Shown: positions 5,424 to 10,385 of the stretch, in pieces
Numbering within the stretch: the first letter of the stretch is position 1
Layout: every line of letters begins with the position of its first letter
Origin: an uncultured Nitrososphaerota archaeon
GTDB lineage: Archaea; Asgardarchaeota; Njordarchaeia; Njordarchaeales; Njordarchaeaceae
Reading direction: 5' to 3'
DNA length: 64,000 bases
NCBI GenBank assembly: GCA_964518475.1
Contig: CAZFGR010000007.1
Span: forward strand, 12,350 to 76,349
Notes under the pieces: generated by a model
Seen by the model: only the letters and a program-made list of their open reading frames with translations
The model's database searches: none
Told to the model about the DNA's origin: nothing
Translations under genes and position numbers: made by a program

Positions 5424-6308
5424 TCATTTCACAATATCTTTTAGTGTGTTAAGACTATCGATGAGATCCCCAGAAGTTACCTCTTTTTTCTCTGATAAGC
5501 TTTTTGCAATCTCTTCTAAGATAGCAAGAACGAACTCTTCCTTTGCGTTCTCAAACAATTCAGCCACTAATTGATTCTCAACAACACGTTTACTGGGTCT
5601 TGTCGCAATATTAACAACAGCTACCCTGGTGTTCTCTATAAGCATTACTGGAGAAGTCTTCGACATTATCGCAATATCTGTCACGTATTTCGGGTTCTGC
5701 ATTAGCGTCTCCACGAACCTGGTGGGTTCTACAAAGTATTTTAGGAACGGCCCTTTATTCTCATTAAATTCTATGTAAATTATATTTCGGATACCAAAGT
5801 TGATCAAAACGTTTCTCAGGTCTTTCTCAATATTTAATAAGCCGGGGTTATCGATTACTCTTCTCTTGTTCTCCAAGAAATCTATTATGCTGCGAATTTT
5901 TTGAAAGATCTCATTCCTTTCTAAGTTAACCCTATAGACTTTTGCGCCGCCACTCAGATAAGTCTCCAAAGCTCCAATACTAACAATCTTATCAAGAATT
6001 CTCTCTACCTTATCACTTGGCAATTTTGATTTTCTAGATATTTCGCTGAGAGAGAATAAGAAAAGTGTTAAAGCGGATTGTAGAACTCCTAAGTACTCAT
6101 TTAAATTGAATTCGTAAATCTCCCGATACTCATCACTCTGGCTAGCAAGAGATTCTTGAATGATTTCTCTCACAAATCTCCTCGTTTTTCTTCGCCGAGA
6201 TTTAATCAGCGATAAAACATAGTCCAGAGAATACACAATGAGACTACCTATCAGGAAACCCATTACAATACTTAATACCAAAGATAAATTTACTTGCAAA
6301 GGAATCAT
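5424..6308 (-). CDS. Membrane-anchored protein: N-terminal TM + winged HTH + longin/uDENN-like domain
   Basis: A TM helix followed by RRRKTRR, then 'SLSEISRKSKLPSDKVERILDKIVSIGAL..KVYRVN' (wHTH), then 'NIIYIEFNENKGPFLKYF', which resembles the uDENN/NPR2 first hairpin. The ATG at 6308 overlaps the upstream TGA. Confidence 0.6.
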   Translation of the reverse strand: MIPLQVNLSLVLSIVMGFLIGSLIVYSLDYVLSLIKSRRRKTRRFVREIIQESLASQSDEYREIYEFNLNEYLGVLQSALTLFLFSLSEISRKSKLPSDKVERILDKIVSIGALETYLSGGAKVYRVNLERNEIFQKIRSIIDFLENKRRVIDNPGLLNIEKDLRNVLINFGIRNIIYIEFNENKGPFLKYFVEPTRFVETLMQNPKYVTDIAIMSKTSPVMLIENTRVAVVNIATRPSKRVVENQLVAELFENAKEEFVLAILEEIAKSLSEKKEVTSGDLIDSLNTLKDIVK

Positions 6309-9300
6309 CTCCTTCTTCTCCTTCGCATCAAGAGAGTAAGGGAACTCCCACAAACAACTCCTACTAATAAGCCAATATACTGAATCTCGACTATTGATGT
6401 TGGAGTTTTTCCTTGAGTTGGTGAAGGTAAGTGTGTGGATCCTTCGCCTTCTTCACGAATAATGATCTTTATGGAGTTTTCTCCATGATTACCAGCATTA
6501 TCAATGGCAATAATCCTTAACACATAAGTTCCGGGCTCCGTTAAGTTTATTGAGAACGTTTTCTCTGTATCATTAAAAGAATAGAGAAGAGTGTTATTCA
6601 TATAGATAAGGACGCCCCTAATTCCGTTTTTATCAGTAACCTCGTAAGAAACATTAATTAGTCCAGGAGGAAAAACAGAATTGTTCAAGGGCTCATCTAT
6701 TACTATCTTAGGGGGTGTTACATCAATTACTATGGTTTTCTCTTTAACAGCTTTATTTCCAGCGAGATCTATAGCTTCTACATATAGGAAATAGACTCCT
6801 TCTGAGACATTTATCGTAATGGCAAGGTTTGTTTCATTGCCGTTATACAGGCATGTGTTGTTTAGATAAACAAGTACGTGTTTTATTTCGATCCTATCAG
6901 TTATGTTTGCTTGGATGCTGAGAGTTGTTGTGTTTAATAGATCTGGAGCTCTAAGCTGAATAGTCGGTGGGTGAGTATCAATAATTACTCCTTGGCTATA
7001 TTCTGCAATGTTACCAGCTATGTCAAATGACAATATACGCACTATATAGTAGCCGTCCTCGCCTACATCATAGTGCACCGAGATATTAGCAACAGAGCCG
7101 TTATAGACTAGAGTATCATTAATATACACGCGAGAGAGTTCTACACCGAGATCATCAGTAACATTGGCAGTAATAGTAAGAAGAGTTGAATTCGTTATCT
7201 CGGGCACGTTTAGTGTGAGCATTGGGGCGCTAAGGTCAACATATAGGTTTTTCTCTAATAGTGCCTTTCTACCAGCTGTATCATTAGCTACGATCAGAAT
7301 TACATGATTCCCAGCAGCTAATTCTTCAATCGTTAAATGAATTGCTTCATGACTAGAACCTAGTGAGAAGATGTGAGGATAGCTTTGATCCACAGTGATG
7401 ATGCAAGAACTCAAACATACGTCGTCACGGAGCTCTATAGTGAGGGTAGGTGAGGAAGAGTTAGTTACGTATAGCCCTAGGGAATCAACATATTTTAAGC
7501 CCCGTAAATCTATGACTGGAGAAGAAGTATCAGGGAGAGCACTTAGACTCGTTAATCTCATGATTGATGAGTTCTCTAAGAAAAACGAGATAAAGCGAGT
7601 TGTGCTAAGCAGAGAAATAGCCCTAATAGCGTTCCCTCCATAAGCTATCTTCGCTTCCTGAGAAGGAAGAAACATATGAATTGTGGTATTCGTAAACAGT
7701 GTGTAAGGTGCTGCGGCTCTGGGTTTTTCTCCGAGTTTTATTTCATTGTAAGTTGCATTATCTAAATTAATATTAATGAATGAATTATTAACCGGGTACA
7801 CTAGTATGATAGAGTTGTTATAAGGATGAAGCGAGAAAGTATAAAAATCGCTAAGAGTGTGCGAGAAAATCGGGAGAATGGTTGACCAATTCTTAATCAG
7901 CCACACACTAATATTCCATTTGTAAAGATCGTATAACCTAAATTTTCCCCATGCTACTAAGCCGACGTCTAGTGAATTATTATTACGTATAATTATTAGA
8001 TCATGGAGACCCGTCAGAAATTCCCAATCCAAAAATCTGAGACTTGTAGTGATATTATGAGCAATACTAAGATCTGATTTATTAAGCACTAGAAAGCTAA
8101 AGACTAGAGATCGATTACTTACTTTTCTGGTAATAGTAAGTATTTTTTCGCCATAGACTTCTAAGGCTAGTACGTCACCTGTCAACTGTCGTCGTGTCTC
8201 ATCGGGGAACTTAACTATTGTAGAGTTCTGAAAAGCAACTATTATTTCCCCTGATGACTGATCCATCGCCACTTCTCTAGAATCTTCCATACTGTGTAAT
8301 AGAGCGATTTGAGAAGAATTATAATCATGAATAAAAAGGGAGCCATTTGAGAGGAGATACGAAATTGTATTTAGTGAGAGATCCACTTTTTCCACGAATG
8401 CGTCTTCGATGAAGAACTCGTGCACATATCCATGGGAGTTTATAAAGATTACATGGTGGCGAGTATAGGCCACTAAAGCATTATAAGTTCGTTCATAGCC
8501 TACAAAACCAACATCCAGTATAACCTGAGTTTTCACAGAGAAATCGCTAGCGAGAATATATAATAGCCCGTATTTACAGGCAATTATGAAGGTCTTATTA
8601 TCAGAAACGGCTATATCTTGAGGAGGTTCTGAACAAGTAATGTTTTCCTCCTGGTCTAAGGTTGACACATCATATATAGCTACAGTGTCTCTAGGATTTA
8701 TGTGAATAGCCGCTATTACATTATTAGCGTACAATATTTTGTATGTCGAAGCATTTTTCTGTGTAGAGAATAAGTAGGAATTATTCGAATAGATAATGCC
8801 AAAACTATCACTAGTTCGAATAAGTATTTCTGAGGAAGAATCGTTGTCGAGATCTGGAATGACTTGGGATGATTCGTGGTTCAAGAATAAATTCATTGCT
8901 CCTTGATCATTGATTACGAATTGTTTAAGCTTTGTAAATGCTTGATTAACGAGCCCGAATATGTACTGAAAAGCATTGCTTGTAACCACGCAGATGGAGG
9001 GACTGTTGTTCCAAATAATATTGCTGGAAAAAATGATCTTGGAGGGTAATTCTTGTATAATTATCGTGTCTGATGACCCTGGAATTGTATTTGCTAAGCC
9101 ATTAGAACTATATCCATCCTCAGTCGTATAGTTGAGGACGAAAATAAGTTGATTCTGGAGAGGGAATAGGTTCAGGAGAGTGTAGTTAACCACTATAGAC
9201 TGGCCATCAGAAAAGGTCACGTTTTTCCAAGACCATTTAACTAGGTTCTCATCTATTAGATAAAACTCTTTAGATAATCGTTTCCATGCGACAATCTCTT

Positions 9301-9926: not shown

Positions 9927-10001
9927 ACTATGCTGACTTAAATATGTTCATGATAATATGTAGAGAAGGAGGCAGAAATAAAAACTTTTTCAGAATGAGT
10001 C

Positions 10002-10385
10002 TCAGATGATTTCAATTCTGTACTTATTTCTATTAGGAATGTTCTCTAAAACGACTCGGATTAAATAATCTGTGGGTAAATCTCCTAGCGAATCAAGTTT
10101 CTGAACAATCTTTCTTAATAACCCAAGAGCTGAGGGTAAGAATCGTTCGCGAGAAACCCGAGCCACTAAGATATAATGATCTCCGAAAAAGCCCACGTAA
10201 GGAGTTCTTACAAAGATCTTATCTTTGGCGTAACGCCTCACTAAGTTAGCGACAATAGCCATGCCTTCTAAAATATTTTTATCACCCAAGTTTGTATAGA
10301 TTCGCATTTTGTCCCCGTTAATTGATATAACAAATATCGGTCCACCATAAGTAAAGACATATAGACGTTGAATAAGCTCTTCCAT
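10002..10385 (-). CDS. Standalone longin-like domain protein
   Basis: 127 aa. 'IQRLYVFTYGGPIFVIS' start, then a helix, three short strands and C-terminal helices, matching longin topology. Confidence 0.5.
   Translation of the reverse strand: MEELIQRLYVFTYGGPIFVISINGDKMRIYTNLGDKNILEGMAIVANLVRRYAKDKIFVRTPYVGFFGDHYILVARVSRERFLPSALGLLRKIVQKLDSLGDLPTDYLIRVVLENIPNRNKYRIEII

Follow-up and report, generated by a model that had tools for sequence, protein, structure and literature searches.

The passages of Tran et al. (2024, PMC10933270) on longin and roadblock proteins give the small-GTPase platform as the established role of dimers of these domains, and, together with the corresponding passages of Liu et al. 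(2020, 10.1101/2020.10.19.343400), they portray an Asgard superfamily with lineage-specific domain fusions, some members of which are encoded beside Rab/Arf/Rag-like GTPases. In the same passages of the former study, the GTPase genes of MK-D1 are said to lie generally outside operons with roadblock or longin genes, and genome layout is said to be of rare help in pairing Asgard GTPases with longin/roadblock proteins. Beyond the Asgard archaea, a longin or roadblock domain that is held at a membrane and docks or regulates a small GTPase is found in SR-alpha SRX/SR-beta, Ragulator-Rag, Mon1-Ccz1, TRAPP, the uDENN domain of DENN proteins and the bacterial MglB-MglA pair. Here, we describe a three-gene module from an Asgard archaeon, located in a 64,000-nt stretch of contig CAZFGR010000007.1 (hereafter the window), which shares fold class and host with the first set and whose products P0001 and P0003 have structural matches that fall among the second. 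In contrast to those platforms, the anchor is a transmembrane (TM) helix of P0001 itself, placed beside a putative surface receptor, and a small-GTPase-docking role would be a putative one. Its core is an overlapping gene pair coding for a large surface protein with immunoglobulin (Ig)-like repeats (P0002) and a small membrane-anchored protein that combines a winged helix (WH) with a longin-like domain (P0001); a free-standing longin (P0003) is encoded next to them. The pair recurs in divergent loci and has a fused, one-gene counterpart, by which its reading as a split receptor is well supported. No membrane-anchored WH-longin protein paired with or fused to an Ig-repeat glycoprotein appears in the longin/roadblock passages of the two studies cited above, and no description of this architecture was found in the literature searched.

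Organization of the locus

All three genes lie on the minus strand, with the sizes and the shared orientation that had been read from the open reading frames (ORFs) in the original prediction. The features, with positions counted along the window and residues in amino acids (aa), are as follows:

10002..10385, minus strand: P0003, 127-aa stand-alone longin-fold protein (AlphaFold2 (AF2) model and structural alignment)
9851..10001, minus strand: spacer of 151 bp between P0003 and P0002 (sequence reading)
6305..9850, minus strand: P0002, 1181-aa single-pass surface protein, predicted to be N-glycosylated
8828..9454, minus strand: beta-rich head of P0002 with three D-x-[DN]-x-D-x3-E (FG-GAP/VCBS-like) loops, aa 133-341
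6452..7531, minus strand: four Ig-like repeats of P0002, aa ~774-1133 (Pfam Big_7, Big_13)
6308..6394, minus strand: TM helix of P0002 (GxxxGxxxG) and RRRRRR tail
5424..6308, minus strand: P0001, 294-aa membrane-anchored WH-longin protein (AF2, orthologues)
6225..6296, minus strand: N-terminal TM anchor of P0001 (GxxxG) with a basic stretch after it, aa ~5-28 (hydropathy 2.38)
5925..6113, minus strand: winged helix of P0001, aa 66-128 (AF2, VIA-align)
5850..5924, minus strand: long linker helix of P0001, aa 129-153 (AF2)
5427..5831, minus strand: longin/roadblock-superfamily C-domain of P0001, aa 160-294 (AF2, VIA-align, Foldseek)

The stop codon of P0002 and the start codon of P0001 share the letters ATGA, as can be read directly from the DNA, an overlap that, at the level of gene layout, shows the two genes to be translationally coupled. 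In the public gene call, P0001 starts instead at an upstream TTG (position 6353), giving a product of 309 aa; however, its orthologues begin at the same M-P/I-L... position as the ATG at 6308, and this ATG is therefore preferred, so that only a few residues of P0001 would lie outside the membrane. In the 151-bp spacer, the P0003 stop is followed by a T-rich tract and the P0002 ATG is preceded by the letters GAGGT; a separate promoter is possible there. No Rfam family matched anywhere between positions 4000 and 12500 of the window.

Conservation and fusion of the gene pair

Full-length relatives of P0001, at 22-39% identity, were found in genomes of the same genus (G001, G002, G004, G005 and G006) and in metagenomes; a word-indexed homologue search with P0001 returned only the protein itself. 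In eight loci, one in the window's own genome (G000) and the others in G004, G005, G006, L032, L033, L034 and L035, a surface-protein gene lies directly upstream of the TM-WH-longin gene or overlaps it, overlap with its start being frequent, and the product of this upstream gene is an Ig-repeat protein whose C-terminal end is formed by a TM helix with a basic tail. The surface proteins of G004, G005 and G006 align to P0002 over the full length. What lies downstream differs among the relatives: a pyridine-nucleotide oxidoreductase gene in the window, an inositol-1-phosphate synthase gene in G004 and G006, an XPD-type helicase gene in G005, L033 and L035, and a methyltransferase gene in G002 and L032. 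Because the pair is kept while its downstream neighbors differ, the pair is the conserved unit, and the synteny that had been anticipated for it in relatives is borne out across these divergent loci.

The split arrangement has a fused counterpart in a metagenomic contig (L031; Ga0180302_10016349 of JGI sample 3300014887), where a single ORF codes for an Ig repeat, a single TM helix, a WH and a longin-like domain and matches the family in hhalign at 99.75% (E 3e-27). The frame upstream of it holds Big_7 repeats (E 4e-17). An A7 run within the ectodomain (1250-1260) marks the only break, a frameshift between the two frames, whether a sequencing error or a real indel; joined by a shift of one base, the frames again yield a complete Ig repeat. 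The fused form contains one TM helix only, in a coherent out-TM-in topology, whereas a read-through of the split form would carry two; hence, the fusion is not an artefact of that kind, and by the Rosetta-stone argument it indicates that the two halves work together. Thus, conserved adjacency and a one-gene, single-TM version both speak for the earlier idea of a split receptor, and on this comparative-genomic footing a receptor composed of P0002 and P0001 is well supported. In the split form, the TM helices of both proteins bear small-xxx-small motifs, as do those of the orthologues; such motifs are common, and they are only suggestive of a pairing of the helices.

A separate arrangement is seen in G001 (L027, 10362-11873), where the TM-WH-longin gene is followed by a gene for a TM protein of 174 aa and by one for a protein of 503 aa that is rich in calcium repeats of the D-x-D-G-D-G-L-S-D-Y-E-E type (thrombospondin-type-3-like). 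In this genome, the homologues of P0002 and P0003 are situated 6 kb from the TM-WH-longin gene.

The surface protein

P0002 has a hydrophobic N-terminus (a signal peptide) and, toward its other end, a TM helix (aa ~1153-1175) with a GxxxGxxxG motif, followed by a tail of six Arg. Its N-x-S/T sequons number 47, against ~17 expected by composition, and all of them fall inside aa 69-1102. Ahead of the membrane are the four Ig-like repeats, matched by Pfam Big_7 (E 1.2e-16) and Big_13 (E 1.2e-12); in a PDB profile search the Ig/FnIII modules of 3pdd_A were also recovered (E 5e-7). The repeats, the lone TM helix and the poly-Arg tail are therefore as they had been described. For the head, the outcome is divided: three D-x-[DN]-x-D-x3-E loops are indeed present, at aa 133, 177 and 333, with D333, D337 and S340 of the third loop invariant across five orthologues, but the FG-GAP profile proper gives only a weak match, with Pfam FG-GAP_3 at E 0.024 and 15.7 bits against a cut-off of 26.9. 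Pfam, NCBIfam and PDB sequence searches found no significant family match for the first ~770 aa. In an Atlas feature search with P0002, FG-GAP clusters scored 0.81, to be taken as a lead only, and one orthologue has a faint FG-GAP match.

Surface proteins that combine FG-GAP/VCBS and Ig-like modules are common in prokaryotes. The likeness to integrin alpha that had been proposed holds for the layout: DxDxD-type loops sit in a beta-rich head, Ig-like domains form the stalk, and a lone TM helix leads into a short tail of basic residues. The likeness does not extend further: in addition to the sub-cut-off FG-GAP_3 score, the stalk is built of the prokaryotic Big_7/Big_13 types, there is neither a beta subunit nor a GFFKR-type motif, the tail consists of RRRRRR only, and the partner is devoid of an ectodomain. 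The term 'integrin-alpha-like' can hence be used for P0002 only as an analogy of layout, with no claim of relationship.

Structural affinities of the two longin-like proteins

Models of both P0003 and P0001 were built with AF2 on family alignments from relatives. That of P0003 reaches a predicted local distance difference test (pLDDT) score of 93 and displays the topology bb(b)-a-bbb-aa (strands, E, and helices, H, at E5-12, E16-23, (E26-30), H35-52, E57-60, E63-67, E71-77, H80-100 and H105-114). Among 48,161 chains compared using VIA-align, its top 15 matches are all longins, at Z 8.0-9.7 and with 100-111 of the 127 residues aligned; the longin matches include CPLANE (7q3d_C, Z 9.7), VAMP7 (Z 8.8), Sec22, the adaptor (AP) sigma/mu subunits, Mon1-Ccz1, TRAPP and GATOR1. 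Roadblock/MglB chains, by contrast, score lower (Z 7.1-7.5), as does profilin. An Atlas shape search retrieved Clat_adaptor_s, Fuz_longin_1 and Asgard hypothetical proteins at TM-scores of 0.58-0.68. The confident model and the uniformly longin matches confirm the longin fold that had been suspected for this 127-aa protein.

Homologues of P0003 are found throughout the window's order. Next to the surface-protein gene they occur in five loci, being co-oriented in the window and in G002 and divergent in G001, L033 and L035 (hhalign 99.7-99.9% for these three); in G005 and G006, no P0003-like gene is present at the corresponding spot, and the homologues sit on other contigs. The f2 genomes have a conserved neighborhood with a P0003-like gene ~6 kb from a pair consisting of a GTPase gene and a free C-domain gene. 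A search for longer homologues disclosed no fused form of P0003. It may thus be described as a recurrent rather than a constant neighbor of the pair, and plausibly as an accessory subunit; the place of heterodimer partner that it had been given in the original prediction gains no support from these results. The only paralogue of P0003 in the window's genome (138 aa) is encoded on contig C9 (36191-41841; L030), two genes from the gene for another surface protein with a signal peptide, of 1295 aa; a gene of ~414 aa lies in the interval.

The AF2 model of P0001 has a mean pLDDT of 82, with values >90 over its C-domain (aa 162-293). From the N-terminus, it comprises the TM helix, which forms part of a helix spanning aa 3-54, the WH (aa 69-127), the linker helix (aa 129-152) and the C-domain, in a predicted N-out, C-in orientation. 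The C-domain has the topology alpha0, beta-beta, alpha, beta-beta-beta, alpha-alpha (H162-170, E173-182, E186-192, H197-215, E221-224, E227-236, E243-251, H257-271 and H279-293) and contains the motif I-x-F-[DN]-x3-G-P-x-L-K-Y. VIA-align superimposes residues 172-293 on the entire longin of AP-3 mu (9c5c_M; Z 9.3, root-mean-square deviation (rmsd) 3.2, 105 aa). This is the sole longin row for P0001 in a list otherwise filled by matches to winged helix-turn-helix (wHTH) domains, and the longin case is to that extent weaker than for P0003. In Foldseek, DENND10 (8p0v_M) is matched at E 1e-3. When compared with roadblock domains, the C-domain has a roadblock-like N-terminal helix and two longin-like C-terminal helices; no match to the Robl_LC7 profile was obtained in the C-domain family, though the genome carries 6 true roadblock genes. 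The longin fold proposed for the C-domain is upheld by its topology in a well-scored model and by the AP-3 mu and DENND10 matches.

For the P0001 and P0003 families, membership in the longin fold is found, and membership in a curated family is not. Searches of Pfam and NCBIfam with 15 and 12 members of the two longin-like families gave no match at E <= 0.1, and a PDB profile search with both families gave nothing below E 0.1; PF06218 (NPR2) has no match in the genome at E <= 1. The hhalign comparison of the C-domain family with the P0003 family detected no relation between them.

The WH of P0001 aligns with wHTH domains of the ArsR/MarR type at Z 10-12 (6uvu_B: Z 12.0, rmsd 2.4, 83 aa). Among the orthologues, its net charge ranges from -4 to +4, and the third ('recognition') helix is neutral and unconserved, from which it would appear to be unlike a sequence-specific DNA reader. 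A membrane-tethered wHTH is also a feature of ToxR/CadC and the archaeal ArnR. In ToxR/CadC, a single chain runs from an N-terminal cytoplasmic OmpR-type wHTH through a TM helix to an external sensor. The module has the order TM, wHTH, longin instead, its wHTH is of the ArsR/MarR type and not basic, and its sensor is a separate protein; this difference in topology, along with the charge and the variable third helix, leaves the ToxR/CadC-like DNA-binding output of the original prediction unsupported. A parallel might also be drawn with NPRL2/NPRL3, which contain the same two folds, but there the longin precedes the WH, an order that is reversed in P0001, and no NPR2 profile match accompanies the likeness.

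The C-domain family and its small-GTPase neighbors

The profile of the P0001 C-domain recovered 77 clusters among 1.84 billion representatives. At E <= 1e-5 it has a match in 47 genomes, out of 300 sampled from the phylum plus G000: 1-7 per genome in the window's order, one or few in a few other families, and none in the two largest sampled families; the window's own genome has only 3. The members range over free forms of 130-175 aa, forms with one TM helix with or without a WH, forms in which the domain stands behind a multi-TM domain, and soluble proteins of 255 aa and ~395 aa.

Several of these distinct forms adjoin genes for small GTPases. The free forms of G007 and G011 come directly after Ras-family genes and the multi-TM forms directly after Arf/Rag-like genes; likewise, P0034 follows a Ras/Arf gene, P0073 precedes a Ras-family gene, and P0058 (L038, L039) follows an Arf-like gene that is itself divergent from a Big_7 surface gene. 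In the window's own genome, the TM paralogue on contig C12 follows a Ras-family gene (149 bits). The paralogue loci with an adjoining GTPase gene include L024 and L026 (Ras family), L014 and L015 (Arf/Rag-like), and also L036 and L042. A genome has some ten such GTPase genes, yet the adjacency is repeated over distinct C-domain subfamilies, so that it is not a matter of chance; it agrees with the platform role of longin/roadblock dimers and favors the docking of small GTPases over DNA binding as the role of the C-domain. By this indirect route, a GTPase output would be the best-supported mechanism for the module. The host assembly (2.33 Mb, 91% complete) encodes a eukaryote-like actin (398 bits, Pfam Actin) and 6 roadblock proteins; Ras-family matches that exceed the Pfam cut-off number 10. 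A particular GTPase had been named for the module, a Rab-like member of the Ras family (107 bits) encoded on the minus strand at 46628-47101; this gene is 36 kb away and has no special link to the module.

The C12 locus (21867-25833; L029 7868-11834) is of interest in its own right as a candidate GTPase-regulator cassette: the 222-aa Ras-family GTPase is followed by a 311-aa protein with TM, linker and longin-like parts, and a convergent gene codes for a 726-aa protein that has no Pfam match and whose first residues look roadblock/longin-like. At the P0058 locus (L038/L039; ENA ERZ27227320 k141_151977, 1470-9752), a gene for a 1032-aa Big_7 surface protein is followed by a 314-aa and a 136-aa gene; the locus also holds the divergent Arf-like GTPase gene and the genes for the TM-anchored P0058, a 178-aa protein and an XPD-type helicase. 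The 314-aa and 136-aa genes are unrelated to either longin-like family.

Functional and evolutionary implications

These observations can be brought together in a proposal, to which we would give somewhat less than an even chance, that P0002 and P0001 constitute a split single-pass receptor whose longin-like domain docks or regulates a small Ras/Arf-type GTPase. The outer half, P0002, would consist of a glycosylated, beta-rich head with FG-GAP-like calcium loops, four Ig stalk domains, a TM helix and the six-Arg tail, whereas the inner half, P0001, having its own TM helix and almost no ectodomain, would present the winged helix, the linker helix and the longin/roadblock-type domain to the cytoplasm. 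The TM helices of the two would associate in the membrane, and the longin-like domain, held there, would provide a platform on which a small Ras/Arf-type GTPase from another locus is docked or regulated; the winged helix would serve for protein-protein contacts or dimerisation and not for reading DNA, and P0003 would be a possible accessory subunit. Events at the cell surface could in this way be coupled, via P0001, to a GTPase switch. A more specific version, in which an adhesin-like glycoprotein recruits or switches a Rab/Arf-like GTPase where the surface makes contact, through its TM-paired or fused WH-longin half, is on the unlikely side; if true, it would mean that the receptor-coupled regulation of GTPases at membranes in eukaryotes had a forerunner in archaea.

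Several results weigh against a receptor with a GTPase output. No GTPase gene adjoins the module or its direct orthologues, the connection being drawn from the paralogues; thus, the longin/small-GTPase link originally put forward is supported indirectly, through the C-domain family. Neither the P0001 nor the P0003 family has a sequence-level match to a curated longin, roadblock, DENN or NPR2 family, and an FG-GAP propeller in P0002 is putative, the profile match falling below the cut-off. Further, the whole cytoplasmic part of P0001 resembles regulators of the IclR type, which furnish its best Foldseek rows (5h1a and 5y6i, E 1.6e-6). In light of this resemblance, a ligand-sensing transcription factor has to be kept in view, that is, a membrane-tethered one-component regulator with the WH binding DNA and the C-domain as the sensor, either of a ligand in the cytoplasm or of the state in which the surface protein finds itself. 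The Foldseek alignment takes in the wHTH, the linker and the C-domain over ~265 columns; the succession of wHTH, linker helix and alpha/beta domain is the IclR order; and the Z 10-12 matches of the wHTH are to DNA-binding domains of the ArsR/MarR/IclR kinds. However, the superposition with IclR has a TM-score of only 0.23 and an rmsd of ~14 Å, and none of the Pfam IclR, MarR and TrmB profiles reaches its cut-off on P0001 (TrmB E 0.12). The near-neutral charge range of the WH and its neutral, variable recognition helix are equally out of keeping with DNA binding, and family members that lack a WH altogether, both free-standing and multi-TM, adjoin GTPase genes. A regulator of this kind is accordingly considered unlikely.

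A role for P0001 as a structural or biogenesis partner, which anchors, sorts or assembles the glycoprotein with no GTPase switching or gene regulation, for instance by linking it to machinery of a cytoskeletal or coat-like kind or by serving in targeting in the manner of SRX, seems to us just as improbable as transcriptional control. The strict adjacency of the pair and the existence of a fused form would suit it, as would the identity of the C-domain's closest structural match, the longin of an adaptor mu subunit; longins in non-GTPase roles, in SNAREs and in adaptor sigma/mu subunits, are mentioned in the longin/roadblock passages of PMC10933270. On the other hand, the C-domain family repeatedly adjoins small-GTPase genes in other architectures, and the genome encodes other large Ig-repeat surface proteins without an adjoining member of the family, which has only the three members there. 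That the three genes are unrelated neighbors whose likeness to a module arose by chance is highly improbable: in G005 and G006 the pair indeed has no P0003-type gene at its side, and the spacer with its T-rich tract parts P0003 from P0002, but such a view of the two-gene core is already contradicted by the ATGA overlap of the TM genes, by the eight conserved loci with changing flanks and by the fusion.

The wider context of the receptor proposal is that Asgard genomes code for dozens of small GTPases and of longin/roadblock proteins, with partners and inputs unknown. The module offers a concrete and conserved physical context for one such domain, in that a longin-type domain is fixed in the membrane beside a surface glycoprotein or fused to it. 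The question of whether the coupling of the cell surface to GTPases was in place before eukaryotes thereby becomes testable with a few recombinant proteins.

Other genes at related loci

Helicase genes of the XPB and XPD types are found around the module, the related loci listed for them being L033, L035, L011 and L010. On the upstream side of the module, the window, G006, L033 and L035 have an XPB-type gene (ERCC3_RAD25_C; 10466-11842, minus strand, in the window); a convergent XPD-type gene (DEAD_2/Helicase_C_2) lies downstream in G005, L033 and L035, and another is near P0058 in L038. From this distribution, the ancestral order seems to have placed the module between two TFIIH-type helicase genes. 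Elsewhere in the window, far from the module, a roadblock/LC7 gene is found at 59829-60086 on the minus strand (Robl_LC7, 36.5 bits).

The ~395-aa relatives of the C-domain family, in which the longin comes before the WH, belong to other Asgard families and do not adjoin surface-protein genes. In L045-L048 (G037, G195, G015 and G089), the protein has an N-terminal longin-like domain and a wHTH-like C-terminal end. Its gene is present once in the majority of the genomes of another Asgard family, and its setting is constant: genes of the 2-oxoacid:ferredoxin oxidoreductase-like kind and one for ~215 aa come before it, and one for ~340-360 aa comes after it.

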